A stretch of DNA of 61,724 nucleotides from Bdellovibrio sp. (GCA_020723205.1 DYJF01000002.1:1-61724); one strand, 5' to 3'. Counted from the first letter of the stretch, positions 25,285-46,033 are shown. Made by a program: numbers and translations. The notes: generated by a model from the letters alone, not told the origin.

Positions 25285-25437
25285 TCAAGACCTCCCGTAT
25301 TCCGGCATTTCTAGATGAAGAAAAAAGGGAATGCAAGACCGCTATCCCCAAGTAAACACTTGCAAAATGACGTGGGGCGTTATATGCCGGACGGACAAAA
25401 ATCGTCTGGGGGAGACGTACATATTCCGGAGGGAACT

Positions 25438-28400
25438 ATGTGGAGTGCTGGACAGACGACTCTTCCACCCACTTTCAGACCGGCGTTTCTCGCGCCTCCT
25501 GTTGTCCTCCCAGTCAGAGCAGCCCTTGCCCCGATAATGCAGCAACGATCTCCACATCATTTTCCCGCAGCACCGCAATATCATCAGTCGTCATATGTGG
25601 GTGACGGAGAGGTCCTTGGTTATATCACCGGCATGAGCGCGGCCGCCCAGTGTTCCGGCTCCTCCGGTTGCGGCGGTATCTCCGGCGCCGACGACGGCGC
25701 ATCCGTTCCGCCGGGAGGAAGCATGCCTCCGCCGCCAAGGGACCCGAAAGAATTTCTCGAGAGGACGTCCACGCCTGAAGGCGAGATAGAACTTTTAAAA
25801 GAAGCCATGGCGGGAAAGCCGAACGGTATCTCGTGGACGGAGATGATCCGGTTGGGAAGGGCGGGCGATCCGAGTTACGCGGAGCTTGCAAAAAGGCCGC
25901 TGGTCGCGGCATTGGGTTCCATGGTCACGACTGTCCTTCAGCCGAGATCGGACAACTTCACGCCGCCCGAAAGGACGCCGTGGGGCGGAAAGCGCATAGT
26001 CGAGGACGTCAAGGCGGGTCTGGGTTTTTCGCATCAATATAAGATCGTAGGTGAGTCGTGGGAGATTTCGAGCCATGAAAGTTTTCCCAACGTCTTCGCG
26101 CTCGAGTACGCCGGTCAGGCCTTGGAGGTAACGATCTCCGTCTTGAGCAGGATCTTTTCGGAGGAGATGTACGGCCGCAGTATCACATCCGCGCATGACG
26201 AGGGGCTTCCTTTCCTCGTCAAGCTCGTGAACTCCGGCAGCTGGCTGCCGTATAAGGATGATCTCAAGAAGATGTTCGGCTGGCTCGACGGCCGGGAATA
26301 CGCCGCCGGCTGGCGAAGGTCCTTGGATGTGGACTGCTCCTTCACGGAGATGCTCTCATGGGACCATCACGCTCTGCACCGGGGGATCGCGCGCCTCAAG
26401 ACGATGATGCTTCAGCGCATCCACTCGACGAGCGAAAGACACCCGCAGGCGCCTATCTGGCGACAGAGTCTCAACGTGTCCTCACTTGAGAACCTGAAGG
26501 GCAGGAGCACGGACGAACTGATAAACGCGCTGCGTCTCCTTTCCACGATGCAGCAGGCGGGTGGTTTGGCGGAAGAGGCCGGCGAGACGGATCATCTCGC
26601 CCTCTTGCACATCATTCATCAGAAAATGCTCACAAAGAACCTCTCGGTGCAGGTCCATCCGCCCAAGGGTTACGACAGGTTGAGCCCGGGCGAACATTCA
26701 AAGAGCGAGGCGTGGATCATTCTGGATTCAGAGCCGGGGGCCGGCATCTATCTGGGCATCAAGGAAGGGGTCACGAAGGAGCAGTTTGCCTCCGCGTTGA
26801 GGGCGGGAGAGGATGTCACGAACCTTCTCAATTTCATTCAGGTGAAGAGGGGGGACGTGTTCTTCATCCCGGCGGGCACGATGCACGCGATAGGCGCAGG
26901 TGTTCTTCTCATGGAACCGCAGGAGACCTCCGAAACGACCTACCGCGTCTATGATTACGGCCGGCTTGACGCCAACAAGAGACCGCGCGAACTTAAGATC
27001 GACAGTGCCATGGCGGTGACCGAATGGGGCGGGAAGAGGGGGGAAGACGCGGTCCAGTGGTTCAGGAGGACGCCGGAGGTCATGAACGCAGGGAATGCAG
27101 GCACCGCACGAGTGGAACGTGTGCTGAACGAGACCTTCTTCGAGACGGCCCGCCTCACGTTCGGGCGCGGCGCCAGTCATTTGAGTGATTCGGACGGGAG
27201 CATCAAGGCGTACACGGTAGTTGAAGGCGCGGTGGAGGTCTACAAGGGGGACGAGGGATCTCCCGTCGGCATATATCAGAAGGGGCAATCATTTATAATT
27301 CCCGTGGCCATGGGGCCGTACAGAATGACAGGCGTGACCGACGGAGCGACTGTATATGAGACCACGGTCTTCTCGCTCGACGGGGCGGGAAGGGCGAAGC
27401 CGACCTCATCGATATCCGAGATCATCGCAAAGCAGGCGCCGGAGATGCAGTCGAGGAACGCGCAATTCGTTGCAAGACCGTCGCGCGGGCACATCTTGAT
27501 GATCAACCCGCAGGGATACGCCGGTCCCAAGGTTCCGATGTCGGCGCCGGACACGGGCGGGCAGATCACCTACCTGCACAGCAAGGCAAGGATGCTCGCC
27601 AAGATGGGCTACAAGGTCAGTATTGTCACACGCTCCTTCAAGCCGGACGAGCAATATGCATCGTACGGCGACAGGATGGGGGTGGATTTCCTGTCAGGCA
27701 CCGGAGACATGGTCCGCTACGTCTTCGTCCCGGGCCTGCAGGTTGAGAACGCCCCCTTCTACAGAAAAGAGGAGAGGCATTTCTATTCCGACCTGCCATC
27801 GATGGCAAGGAACTTGGCGCTTTTCGTGGATGACGAAGCGAGAACGCAGAAGGTCAATCCCTGGGACTATTTTCTCTACGTAGATACTCATTACGTTGAC
27901 GGCGGCAAAGTGGGGCAGCGGTTGGTCAGAATATGGGACCACATGTTCGTAAATAAATATTTCAAGGAACGCTTCAAGGCGGTCCTAGGAATGCGGTCGG
28001 AGCAGGATCCCTTTGCCGACGACAATATCATGGGGAATCTTCCCTACTACTTCGGAAAGCGCGTTATGGCGGCGTGGTACGACGAGATGGGGTCGCAGCC
28101 GTCATACGGTTCCGCGCTGAACATGCAGGATGTGCTAAGGTGGGCCGCGACAAAGCTCGAATGGCCGCCGGACAGGGTTGCAAGGTTGCTTTCCAACTCG
28201 ACGGGCGCCGCCATCGGCAACGGCAGGCACATGTTACCGGCGAAGTTTGACGCCTACACGATCGGTTTTCGTCTGCTGGAAACCGCGGGCGAACTGGGCC
28301 GTCTGTTCCGCTATATAAAGAACCTGAACCGGCACGTCTGGACGCCGCATTCTCTGGGGCAGCTCAAAGAAGACCGGATGATAGCGGATAACCTCATATT

Positions 28401-44032: not shown

Positions 44033-45375
44033 GCATGCACGGTCATCCGGACAGGGCGAAACTACTCGGTTCAGAGTGGAAGTGCGCCTGCGGCGCGGTC
44101 CACAGCGTTCCCGTGAGGAAGGTCCTCATCGGGGCCGGGGTCATTTCCGAACTTAGCGCCGTCGTGCGCGAAGCGGCGGGTGGCGGTCCCGTGCTCCTTA
44201 TCTCCGACGGGACGACGCGCGACATAGCGGGCGCGAATGCCGCACGCATGCTCGCAAGTTCAGGGCTCAAAGTGAGGGAGCTCGTCGTTCCCGGCGAAGG
44301 GCCGGTCGTTGACGATAAGACCGCGGCGTCCGTCATCGACAATTGCGGCGGCGAATCTCTTTTCGTCTCATGCGGCTCCGGCACCGTGACCGATCTGACA
44401 AAATATGCCGCCTTCACGAAGGGCAGGCCATTTGTTGCTGTGGCTACGGCCCCTTCGATGAACGGGTACGCGTCCGGCATCGTGGCTTTGACCGAAAAAG
44501 GATTGAAAAGGACTGTTCCCGCCGCTCCTCCGCTGGCCGTCATTTGCGATCTCGATATTCTTTGCAACGCGCCGATGGGGATGATCCGCGCCGGCTTGGG
44601 GGACGTGATCTCAAAACCCTGCTCCATGGCCGACTGGAAGCTCGAATCTTTGGTGAAGGGCGGCGTTTTCTGTCCGTTACCCTTCGAGCTCATAGCCGAC
44701 CTTGAAAGCGTCTATCTTAAGGATTCGAAGCTGATCGCAAAGCGCGAACCGAAGATCATCGGCGCTCTGACAACGGCCCTTGTCTACTCCGGCATCTCGA
44801 TGGTCGTCGCCGGCTCCTCGTCTCCTGCGTCCGGCGGCGAGCACCTCATATCGCACACGCTGGATATGCGCTCTGCGATGACGGGGAAAAGTCACGATCT
44901 TCACGGCTCGCAGGTGGGCGTTGCGACGATCGTGACGTCGCGTCTCTACGAAAAGGTTCTCTCCACCGATCCGGACCGTCTTGATTGGGCGAAGATATGG
45001 GAACACCACAGGAGGGACGTTTCGCCGCAGATCATCGACTACTGGGGCCGGCTTGCACCGTCCGTCATGAGGGAATTTGAAAGAAAGAGGATGCCTCTCA
45101 AGGAGAAAGAGGCCGAGCTGGAAGGGATCGTCGAACGCTGGGATGAAATAGTGGACGAACTGAAGGTCTTCTTGAGGCCGTCGGCCGATATAAAACGCAT
45201 CTTGACAGAAGCGGGCGCAAAAACGCATTATACCGACATTGGAGCAGGACGGGAGGATTTCAGAGCGGCGGTCCTGATGGCGCGGACGATGCGCTCGCGA
45301 TATACGATACTGGACTTGGCGTACGATCTTAATCTGCTGGAGGATTTCATAAATGATCAAGGCGATCTTTTTTGA
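44029..45375 (+). CDS. sn-glycerol-1-phosphate dehydrogenase-like oxidoreductase (Fe-ADH_2 / AraM-EgsA family)
   Basis: CGSGTVTDLTKYAA, ATAPSMNGYAS, IRAGLGDVISKPCSMADWKL, SSSPASGGEHLISHTLDM and LHGSQVG match the family. An ATGA overlap joins the start to the MFS stop. The longer 43861 ORF is an in-frame run-on inside the MFS gene. Confidence 0.65.
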   Translation: MSMHGHPDRAKLLGSEWKCACGAVHSVPVRKVLIGAGVISELSAVVREAAGGGPVLLISDGTTRDIAGANAARMLASSGLKVRELVVPGEGPVVDDKTAASVIDNCGGESLFVSCGSGTVTDLTKYAAFTKGRPFVAVATAPSMNGYASGIVALTEKGLKRTVPAAPPLAVICDLDILCNAPMGMIRAGLGDVISKPCSMADWKLESLVKGGVFCPLPFELIADLESVYLKDSKLIAKREPKIIGALTTALVYSGISMVVAGSSSPASGGEHLISHTLDMRSAMTGKSHDLHGSQVGVATIVTSRLYEKVLSTDPDRLDWAKIWEHHRRDVSPQIIDYWGRLAPSVMREFERKRMPLKEKEAELEGIVERWDEIVDELKVFLRPSADIKRILTEAGAKTHYTDIGAGREDFRAAVLMARTMRSRYTILDLAYDLNLLEDFINDQGDLF

Positions 45376-46033
45376 CGTAGGGAACACGCTCTTTTTTTAC
45401 AACTACGACTTCCTGCGGGGCCTTTTGGAGGAGCGCTTCGGAGTTGATGTCACTTCCGAAGAACTTGATGCGACCCATCAGATAATAAGAAGGTCAATGG
45501 GGTCGCTGCTCGATCAGCGGCTTTCGCACGAGGCGGTGGTTGAAGAGGCGTATAAGCGCTGGTTCCGCTCCATCGGGATCGAAGAGGACAGGATACCGCC
45601 CGTGATAGAAGCGATCACCACCCATCCGTTCCGCCATCTTTTCTGGGCAAGGTTGGAGGACGGCACGAAGGAACTTCTGATATGGTTCAAGGACCGCGGT
45701 TTCCGGTTGGGGGTCATTTCGAACGCGGAGGGACAGATAAGGCGCCTGATAGCGCATGCCGGGCTTGAGACGACGTTCGATACGGTGCTTGATTCGCACG
45801 AGGTGGGATTTCAAAAACCCGACCTCCGCATATTCAAAAAAGGGCTCGATGACCTGAACGTCACCCCTGCTGAAGCCGTACATGTCGGCGACCTTTTCGA
45901 AGCGGACGTCGTAGGCGCGCGCGCTGCCGGCATCCTGCCGGTCCTCGTGGACAGGGATGGCCGTTATCCCGAAGCGAATTGCCTGAGGGTCAAAAACGTG
46001 GCCGAACTCAAGGACCTGCCGATATTCGGATGA
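45353..46033 (+). CDS. HAD-superfamily hydrolase, subfamily IA (REG-2-like motif I, DVGNT)
   Basis: The motifs are IFFDVGNTLF, VISNAEG and HVGDLFEADVVGARAAG. The second motif-I Asp is replaced by Gly, so a phosphatase role is not assured. Confidence 0.7.
   Translation: MIKAIFFDVGNTLFFYNYDFLRGLLEERFGVDVTSEELDATHQIIRRSMGSLLDQRLSHEAVVEEAYKRWFRSIGIEEDRIPPVIEAITTHPFRHLFWARLEDGTKELLIWFKDRGFRLGVISNAEGQIRRLIAHAGLETTFDTVLDSHEVGFQKPDLRIFKKGLDDLNVTPAEAVHVGDLFEADVVGARAAGILPVLVDRDGRYPEANCLRVKNVAELKDLPIFG

Follow-up and report, generated by a model that had tools for sequence, protein, structure and literature searches.

A Bdellovibrio sp. locus in which giant orphan proteins of two families each accompany their own organophosphate antiporter

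Organophosphate:phosphate antiporters (OPA) such as GlpT, UhpT and UhpC (TC 2.A.1.4) are, to our knowledge, textbook stand-alone transporters, and the sole protein partnership that we know of is the UhpB/UhpC signalling pair. Here we describe a locus of ~20 kb (positions 25315-46033) that encodes two OPA antiporters together with two very large proteins, which we call giant A and giant B, and with several enzymes. The locus lies within a 61,724-nt stretch of DNA from Bdellovibrio sp. (GCA_020723205.1, DYJF01000002.1:1-61724); this whole stretch is referred to as the window, and all coordinates are those of the window unless a locus in another genome is named. The two antiporters belong to the major facilitator superfamily (MFS) and are termed MFS1 and MFS2. 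They are clear members of the OPA group, with UhpC and TIGR00881 as their top models, and in this they resemble the UhpABC-UhpT system of E. coli. The locus differs from such systems in having no adjoining UhpA/UhpB-type regulators or glp genes, and in that three lineage-specific OPA subfamilies pair with orphan proteins of 1000-1650 aa.

The enzymes of the locus recall several other described systems. Like sucrose-phosphate synthase and its phosphatase (SPS/SPP), MfpsA/MfppA of Agrobacterium and MshA, the locus has retaining GT-B glycosyltransferases of family GT4, with a GDP-mannose supply and a phosphatase of the haloacid dehalogenase (HAD) type nearby; MfpsA itself uses GDP-mannose. It departs from these systems in that the HAD protein is of type IA and belongs to the other cassette, that one GT4 unit is embedded in a ~1670-aa fusion with a mannose-6-phosphate isomerase (PMI) and a mannose-1-phosphate guanylyltransferase (GMP), and that an antiporter and a giant are part of the cluster. 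ManC, AlgA and XanB (TIGR01479) likewise carry guanylyltransferase and PMI in one polypeptide, but here the PMI is of class I and N-terminal rather than a C-terminal class-II cupin, and a whole GT4 lies between PMI and GMP. AraL/AraM of Bacillus subtilis are a pair of HAD phosphatase and glycerol-1-phosphate dehydrogenase (G1PDH), and a G1PDH-family Fe-ADH_2 protein and a HAD phosphatase are also encoded together in our locus; here, however, the start of the G1PDH-like gene overlaps the stop of a GlpT-like antiporter gene, a giant gene precedes them and there is no arabinose context.

Finally, Chlamydia has Inc proteins, the hexose-phosphate transporter UhpC and secreted glycogen enzymes. The likeness lies in a bilobed hairpin of ~45 aa within otherwise soluble, lineage-specific proteins, and in reliance on an OPA transporter with sugar-nucleotide enzymes nearby. 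The giants differ from Inc proteins in being 5-10 times larger, in having the hairpin mid-protein and in showing no sequence similarity to them, and the organism, at ~57% GC, carries ordinary catabolic genes. We found no description of the PMI-GT4-GMP fusion, of either giant family or of the pairing of giant with OPA antiporter in the family libraries or literature that we searched. With moderate confidence we regard this assembly of genes as new, nearly all of the evidence coming from one clade of metagenome-assembled genomes (MAGs) with extensive shared synteny.

Each giant family with an antiporter subfamily of its own

We compared the gene neighbourhoods of homologs in other genomes, whose loci we designate by L numbers and whose individual proteins by P numbers. 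The locus consists of two cassettes. Cassette A comprises giant A (1155 aa; 34125-37592, minus strand), a standalone GT4 gene (32719-34110, minus strand), MFS1 (30340-31686, minus strand), GMP and PMI, the last two being fused or split. In the window, giant A is followed by GT4 and MFS1, and this series is convergent with the PMI-GT4-GMP fusion gene (25315-30333, plus strand); a standalone GMP gene (31812-32735, plus strand) lies on the strand opposite to giant A, GT4 and MFS1. Cassette A was found in seven populations (the window, L001, L010, L011, L013/L017, L014/L015 and L018), and in all seven a giant A homolog (25-76% identity) lies within two genes of an MFS1-type OPA, GT4, GMP and PMI. 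The cassette occupies two chromosomal sites and has two gene orders (giant-GT4-MFS and giant-MFS-GT4), with PMI and GMP fused or separate.

L010 and L011 were retrieved with the fusion as an independent query and represent the second site, downstream of AdoHcyase/dNK. There the fusion is flanked by an MFS1 ortholog (75-77% identity), GT4 (57-59%) and family-A giants (27-32%). In L013/L017, L014/L015 and L018, distant family-A giants stand beside MFS1 (69-78%), GT4 (66%) and GMP (58-65%). In total, MFS1 orthologs of 69-78% identity occur in L001, L010, L011, L013, L014 and L018, each beside a family-A giant, and GT4 orthologs of 57-67% identity in L001, L010, L011, L013 and L014, which are all of the cassette-A loci compared directly with the window; the GT4 of L018 is 66% identical to that of L010. 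Identity of giant A to the window falls to 25-27% in comparisons in which MFS1 retains 69-78%, GT4 57-67% and the fusion ~51%. The standalone GMP shares its 58-65% identity with GMP genes at the matching position in L013 and L014, and no standalone GMP is present in the L001, L010 and L011 loci.

Cassette B consists of giant B (37979-42613, plus strand), MFS2 (42668-44032, plus strand), a G1PDH-like gene (44029-45375, plus strand) and a HAD gene (45353-46033, plus strand), in that order. An MFS2 ortholog directly downstream of giant B recurs in four other populations, L002, L004/L008, L005/L006 and L007, where identity to the window is 47-51% for giant B and 76-86% for MFS2. L002, L005/L006 and L007 lack cassette A and share the order FTCD, (variable orphans), giant B, MFS2, G1PDH-like, HAD, RlmN, PNP, RecO and TonB. 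The G1PDH-like gene follows an OPA gene in L001, L002, L005, L007 and L009, and HAD is found in the matching position in L002, L005, L006 and L007. L004/L008 has giant B and MFS2 together among orphans, without G1PDH or HAD. This 20-kb region (GCA_043798915.1, JAZDOG010000015.1) encodes orphans without Pfam matches of 494+, 409, 945, 716, 1628 and 898+ aa; with its family-C giant and distant giant-B paralog it looks like an island of giant genes.

A third pairing involves the family-C giants (L003_1196, L009_1554 and L004_945), which are homologous to family A from end to end (hhalign probability 99.6%, E 4e-24). Those of L003 and L009 each lie directly upstream of a member of a third OPA subfamily, which shows 77-82% identity internally and ~30-33% to MFS1 and MFS2. 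In L001, a member of this third subfamily adjoins giant A and G1PDH.

Cassette B thus occurs without cassette A (L002, L005/L006, L007), A occurs elsewhere (L010, L011) and A occurs without giant B (L001), so that the two cassettes are separable, and every giant family has an OPA subfamily of its own. The first-pass annotation, which was made from the window alone, had grouped the giants with antiporter and glycosyl-transfer genes, and homologs of the giants in other genomes proved to be linked to these same genes. The linkage of giant and antiporter is secure and, because the pairing is kept across several related genomes, the set is a real gene module and not a chance neighbourhood. Operon signals within it are the 14-nt gap between giant A and GT4, the ATGA in which the start of the G1PDH-like gene overlaps the TGA stop of MFS2, and the 23-nt overlap of the G1PDH-like and HAD genes.

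Giant and OPA antiporter are common to the three cassette types while the enzymes that accompany them vary (PMI, GMP and GT4 in A; G1PDH-like and HAD in B and C). On this ground we tentatively favour, with less than even confidence, a reading in which the locus holds two independent, lineage-specific cassettes set back to back, each of which would serve the uptake and processing of organophosphates with a hairpin-anchored giant as partner.

The giant proteins

Giant A is the founding member of an uncharacterised all-alpha family. Its conserved N-terminal motif is followed by a tetratricopeptide repeat (TPR)-like solenoid, a bilobed hairpin (residues 398-443), about six weakly hydrophobic helices that extend to residue ~800, a conserved polar region (~785-890) and a C-terminal alpha domain, and the gene ends 14 nt before GT4. 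The family alignment contains many columns with little or no variation, and the near-invariant polar residues are K796, D811, Y836, N839, R840, R843, D848, R855, D861, N879 and E888. A word-indexed search of 5.8 billion proteins returned one relative, at 76% identity, and HMMER, run exhaustively against 1.84 billion cluster representatives, returned 51 clusters at E<=1e-3, mostly of 900-1300 aa. The window and L001 copies are 76% identical over their full length, which is similar to the neighbouring enzymes, and the aligned sequences indicate that giant A is under purifying selection along its entire length. Conservation of this kind suggests that the giants are functional.

The N-terminal motif of family A, M-S-x(3-7)-LPxF(P/S)xxLLxxGTxxP, often followed by IDPF, is a strongly conserved segment of ~30 aa that is charge-poor and rich in Ser, Thr and Pro (giant A residues 1-31, 37592-37500; also L003 and L010-L014). 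It may be a targeting signal. A hidden Markov model (HMM) of the motif matched family-A giants only among 1329 open reading frames (ORFs), and an export signal common to the giants and the fusion was rejected on this basis. The octapeptide DGEVLGYI is identical in giant A (residues 60-67, 37415-37392) and the fusion (residues 97-104, 25603-25626), at a similar distance from both N-termini; there is no identity at the DNA level and the octapeptide is lost in more distant orthologs. Tandem giant paralogs occur in L007, L009, L011, L012, L013 and L018, and L003_531 is a truncated remnant. The family-A giant of L011 carries an in-frame stop (GAA to TAA, about 18606-18635 of that locus).

Giant B has 1544 codons, starts with TTG and contains an in-frame TAG at 41867-41869. 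All ten ORFs of the first-pass annotation are present at the coordinates claimed; among them, however, a giant B of ~1290 aa and a separate 245-aa orphan turned out to be one gene split by this TAG. The supposed orphan (41876-42613) shares its reading frame with giant B and is 57% identical to residues 1300-1556 of the homolog P0004, and the TAG stands at a position that is Trp in all five giant B homologs. The shared frame, the single stop and the invariant Trp together make giant B one 1544-codon gene, and an independent 245-aa gene was therefore rejected. TAG ends 11 of 45 genes, secY and rpoA among them, and is thus an ordinary stop in this genome. Stop-codon reassignment and programmed read-through were rejected for this reason, and the TAG is most simply a TGG-to-TAG nonsense allele or an assembly error. 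In-frame stops, and not frameshifts, are seen in three cassette genes from three assemblies, namely giant B of the window, the L011 giant and the L018 fusion.

The layout of giant B comprises a variable N-terminus, a helical-repeat domain, a hairpin (residues 592-636), a Gly-rich region, a beta-rich domain and a conserved alpha C-terminal domain. Homologs are 1510-1652 aa in length and 39-51% identical, and the word-indexed search returned five relatives at 45-50% identity. Within the N-terminus (residues 24-63, 38040-38175), two CxxC motifs (CSHCH and CPHCH) are separated by ~32 residues and may form a zinc ribbon; the pair is kept in P0004, P0006, L009_1586 and L007_1652 and is not kept in P0007 and P0008.

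No member of either giant family has a significant match in Pfam, NCBIfam, PADLOC or the PDB, in agreement with the earlier statement that the giants belong to no characterised family; matches to Prp19, Effector_1, Rpc34 and TPR_8 were below threshold and were dismissed. The same annotation took the two giants for paralogs. BLASTP aligns no more than a 58-aa motif (E 0.002), and deeper profiles lower the hhalign probability from 33% to 6-7.5%, with an alignment of ~56 residues in the hairpin region only. With the alignment confined to that region, we rejected paralogy of A and B as unproven. Nor did the proposed origin of the locus by inverted duplication hold up, as inverted DNA similarity is limited to stretches of 117-167 nt inside the MFS genes, at 74% identity, and a 35-nt GT4 motif. 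An inverted segmental duplication was rejected because the MFS coding DNA alone matches and the arms occur separately in relatives. Three functions are indeed encoded twice, as had been noted: MFS1 and MFS2 are 63.5% identical, GMP and the GMP domain of the fusion 45.5%, and GT4 and the GT4 domain of the fusion 23-36%. The hydrophobic cores of ~400 aa that had been ascribed to the giants proved to be overstated, each giant having only one segment of at least 1.6 on the Kyte-Doolittle scale (19-residue window). The bilobed hairpin of ~45 aa, with two lobes in A, has a family-averaged Kyte-Doolittle value of at least 1.0, and the giants are predicted to be anchored in the membrane by this hairpin.

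As the only feature common to giants A and B, the hairpin also invites a reading in which the giants are exported, membrane-inserting, Inc-like effectors at a host or prey interface, and the OPA antiporters harvest sugar and glycerol phosphates from the cytosol of another cell, on or in which the organism would live and whose phosphates the giants would make and keep accessible. We consider this unlikely. The charge-poor N-terminal motif of family A would fit such proteins, as would the turnover of giant genes that shows in tandem paralogs, truncated remnants and nonsense alleles; organophosphates, moreover, are abundant mainly inside cells. At longer distances the giants diverge more than the neighbouring enzymes, yet between the window and L001 giant A (76%) diverges no faster than the enzymes (64-74%). 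The window does contain an isolated type-III export gene of the FlhB/SctU family (59850-60917, plus strand) with SctU as its best NCBIfam model, but it scores below both cut-offs (SctU 348 against 358 bits, FlhB 340 against 349 bits) and in the PDB is closer to flagellar FlhB than to the injectisome protein SpaS (198 against 108 bits). The match to Effector_1 (PF04518), seen in one of six giant B relatives, is at chance level (E 0.035; 13.7 bits, cut-off 23.8), and the functions encoded in the window, such as histidine utilisation, glycine cleavage, FeoB and TonB, are of a free-living type. The FlhB/SctU gene has no flagellar or injectisome neighbours and lies beside genes for a PknB-like Ser/Thr kinase that carries PEGA domains and for an FHA-GGDEF protein (57738-59762 and 56767-57684, both minus strand).

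Antiporters, enzymes and a possible mechanism

The first-pass domain assignments of the enzymes and MFS proteins are supported by Pfam, NCBIfam and PDB searches. Both antiporters match the Pfam family MFS_1 (E 7e-55 to 7e-57), and UhpC is the best NCBIfam model for each, with 433 bits for MFS1. Against TIGR00881 (cut-off 407.75), MFS2 scores above the cut-off at 428.7 and MFS1 essentially at it (407.6), while the specific equivalog and subfamily cut-offs (GlpT, UhpT, UhpC, PgtP) are all missed, for example by GlpT (432 against 632) and UhpC (467 against 564). The start of MFS1 was corrected to 31686. MFS2 matches E. coli GlpT (PDB 1pw4) with E 3e-110, and in this alignment all four GlpT substrate-site residues, R45, K80, H165 and R269, are identical.

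The resemblance to UhpC raises the alternative that the OPA proteins are receptors, each signalling through its cognate giant in the place of UhpB, with the giant controlling the adjacent metabolic genes by TPR-like interactions. The pairing of each giant family with its own OPA subfamily is what cognate pairs would show, and the giants do have TPR-like helical repeats. However, no kinase, DNA-binding or other output domain was found in the 26 family members scanned, the GlpT transport-site residues are retained (as seen in MFS2), and both the tandem duplicates and the large size of the giants would be unusual for transducers. We regard this alternative as highly improbable.

The fusion protein of cassette A has 1672 aa, identified by Pfam, NCBIfam and PDB matches as a class-I PMI (residues ~205-680), a GT4 (~725-1340) and a GMP (~1363-1650). 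Judged by where the L010 and L011 fusions begin, its true start is probably M42 (25438). A helical insert of ~130 aa splits the PMI domain, in which the class-I zinc-site and signature motifs LSVQVHP, SKSEAW, IPAGTMHAIG and YRVYDYGR are all present; LSVQVHP and SKSEAW are likewise found in L010, L013_585 and L014_553. The domain scores 65 bits against TIGR00218 (manA), below the cut-off of 116. The ~1670-aa architecture recurs in P0014 and P0015 (50-51% identity), and full or partial PMI-GT4-GMP fusions number four among the 5.8 billion proteins, besides those of L001, which ends at the contig end, and L018 (15876-20243 of that locus), which carries the in-frame stop. In L013 and L014 the fusion is split into a PMI gene of 553-585 aa, which matches the N-terminal portion of the fusion at 44% identity, and a GMP gene of 306 aa. 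Matches to fusion residues ~440-680 were also found in P0017-P0019, which are fusions of class-I PMI and phosphoglucomutase/phosphomannomutase of 930-1445 aa from Chloroflexota MAGs and thus join steps of mannose activation in another manner.

The standalone GMP, a mannose-1-phosphate guanylyltransferase-like nucleotidyltransferase, and the GMP domain of the fusion match NTP_transferase (PF00483) with E 7e-41 and 6e-37, respectively, and the fusion domain matches T. maritima GMP (PDB 2x5s) with E 1e-46. Both miss the cut-off of the TIGR01479 equivalog, with 241 and 224 bits where 373 are required, since they correspond to the N-terminal half of this bifunctional model only, the standalone GMP covering positions 1-282 of 467. 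The standalone GT4 exceeds the Pfam cut-offs for Glycos_transf_1 (E 9e-20), Glyco_trans_4_4 and Glyco_transf_4 and is SPS/MshA-like. Its best NCBIfam models, MshA (82 bits, cut-off 462) and SPS TIGR02472 (72 bits, cut-off 576), are both missed, and its best PDB matches are the SPS Tll1590 (6kih) and MshA; the GT4 domain of the fusion scores 24 bits against TIGR02472. In line with the first-pass annotation, Pfam and NCBIfam reveal no phosphomannomutase, Wzx/Wzy, ABC exporter or lipid-carrier transferase among the ten ORFs.

These enzymes allow another explanation, in which giant A either receives mannose from GT4 or serves as the membrane scaffold of that reaction, with GDP-mannose coming from the local PMI and GMP, and the product is a mannosylated envelope protein or membrane glycoconjugate. 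A gap of 14 nt separates giant A from GT4, which is read in the same direction and occurs in all cassette-A loci, and two GT4 catalytic units are combined with a dedicated GDP-mannose supply; cytoplasmic GT-B enzymes encoded beside the large adhesins that they modify, such as GtfA/GtfB with serine-rich repeat proteins, are well known. Cassettes B and C, in contrast, have a giant and an OPA antiporter but no glycosyltransferase, so that glycosylation is not a common role of the giants. GT4 is, moreover, nearer to enzymes that use small phosphorylated acceptors (MshA 82 bits, SPS 72 bits) than to GtfA (20 bits), and the giants contain no serine-rich repeat regions. On balance this explanation appears quite unlikely.

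In cassette B, the G1PDH-like protein matches the Fe-ADH_2 family (PF13685, E 2e-30), and its PDB matches 9h4x, 4rgq and 5fb3 are all G1PDH (E 1e-42 to 4e-25), 9h4x being the best (E 1.5e-42). It scores 204 bits against the NF002022 equivalog and misses the cut-off of 413. Its start was corrected to 44029. The HAD protein is a HAD-IA phosphatase-like hydrolase that matches Hydrolase and HAD_2 in Pfam and generic HAD-IA subfamilies only in NCBIfam.

The first-pass annotation had seen in PMI, GMP, GT4 and HAD the logic of a compatible-solute pathway, in which a mannosyl-X-phosphate would be formed and dephosphorylated to a mannoside osmolyte, much as mannosylfructose or sucrose is made. As a reading of the enzymes this is plausible chemistry, since the set fits the scheme of nucleotide sugar plus phosphorylated acceptor followed by a phosphatase. 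It would make the giants unrelated bystanders, kept by synteny in a variable island; the content of the slot between FTCD and G1PDH is clearly variable, and L012 has giants without the enzymes. Yet giant, OPA, GT4, GMP and PMI move together to the second site and survive shuffling of gene order as well as fusion and fission, known osmolyte pathways have no place for an organophosphate antiporter, HAD and G1PDH are genes of cassette B that the L010 and L011 regions lack, and GT4 scores 72 against 576 bits with the SPS model. The osmolyte scheme also leaves unexplained the pair of giant and OPA antiporter, the sole element common to the three cassette types. We therefore judge it improbable that the locus is an osmolyte pathway with bystander giants.

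Under the organophosphate reading that we favour, the antiporters would import an organophosphate in exchange for phosphate, a hexose phosphate in cassette A and glycerol phosphate in cassette B, as knowledge of the family would predict. In cassette A, PMI and GMP, with a phosphomannomutase encoded elsewhere, would convert hexose phosphate (fructose 6-phosphate or mannose 6-phosphate) to GDP-mannose, from which the SPS/MshA-like GT4 domains would then move mannose onto a phosphorylated small acceptor. In cassette B, the G1PDH-like and HAD proteins would interconvert or dephosphorylate glycerol phosphate and dihydroxyacetone phosphate. The giants would be non-catalytic membrane partners of the antiporters that act at the envelope, where they would open the way to the organophosphate source or deal with the product; this is the least certain step.

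Several points weigh against this reading. The assignment of substrates to the antiporters and GT4 follows from family resemblance only, all equivalog scores being below cut-off, and the locus has no phosphomannomutase gene. No homolog of the giants, in fold or in sequence, was found. Structure prediction of the giants, which had been suggested as a check, was carried out and no known fold was matched: the AlphaFold2 model of giant A from a 2-sequence alignment is all helix at a mean confidence (pLDDT) of 37, and that of P0004 residues 364-1563 from 7 sequences reaches 48, with the helical-repeat domain as its only confident part; Foldseek of the P0004 model against the PDB gave nothing below E 0.2 and generic helical-repeat matches only. 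In-frame stops in cassette genes suggest dispensability. The linkage evidence has its own weaknesses, since loci were gathered with the giants or the fusion as queries and not with the OPA genes. L012 has two tandem family-A giants and no MFS, GT4 or GMP within 14 kb, and in L003 and L009 giant B lies apart from any MFS gene, on the other side of FTCD. Most loci, in addition, come from one clade with shared synteny (FTCD, RlmN, PNP, RecO, TonB), which leaves few independent contexts, about three.

A more far-reaching proposal is that hairpin-anchored giants of two unrelated families are obligate partners of dedicated OPA antiporters, forming a modular system whose types A, B and C have separate sets of downstream enzymes and which might extract sugar and glycerol phosphates from other cells or export or assemble mannose-phosphate envelope material. 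We put this forward as a speculative idea and hold it to be doubtful.

Chromosomal setting and meaning of the locus

The window comes from the chromosome of an uncultured diderm bacterium and begins with an operon of ribosomal proteins, SecY, Adk, Map, S4, RpoA and L17; FeoB, urocanase, imidazolonepropionase and FTCD precede the locus, and RlmN, PNP, RecO, TonB and glycine-cleavage genes follow it. The locus lies in a variable chromosomal slot, flanked by FTCD (histidine utilisation) and the RlmN-PNP-RecO backbone. GC and GC3 of its genes equal those of the housekeeping genes and the remaining contig, so that it is not recent foreign DNA. A mobile or foreign origin was rejected on this native composition together with the lack of plasmid matches, of which the giants have none, and of bounding repeats.

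The histidine-utilisation region (14379-21059) and the full-length, three-domain FTCD (23617-25284, minus strand) are interleaved with orphan genes, two of which (21040-21822 and 21835-22995) encode proteins with clear signal peptides. At the margin of the variable slot, immediately upstream of FTCD, are tRNA-Ala(GGC) (23073-23148, plus strand) and a gene for a small PD-(D/E)XK endonuclease (23204-23620, plus strand); L003 has a 23S_rRNA_IVP gene in the equivalent place. The divergent genes of giant A and giant B are separated by an intergenic region (37593-37978) that had been described as an AT-rich gap of 398 nt. Its low GC content stands (43%, against 57% for the window), and its length is 386 nt. 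It contains no Rfam family and one sigma-70-like match (37766-37795), the number of such matches across the region being at chance level. With Rfam empty and promoter and terminator matches both at this level, evidence for a promoter, terminator or regulatory RNA was rejected.

Should the giants prove to be bystanders, what remains is an unusual fused locus for mannoside synthesis, of modest interest. In either case the locus brings two new protein families, A/C with ~51 clusters at 50% identity and B with under a dozen known members. The pairing of giant and antiporter would have diversified three times, and one version would have recruited a full GDP-mannose and GT4 set, including a rare trifunctional fusion. 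Nutrient piracy, envelope biogenesis and signalling are possible uses of the pairing, and its conservation with proteins of 1000-1650 aa would point to an unrecognised use of organophosphate exchange.

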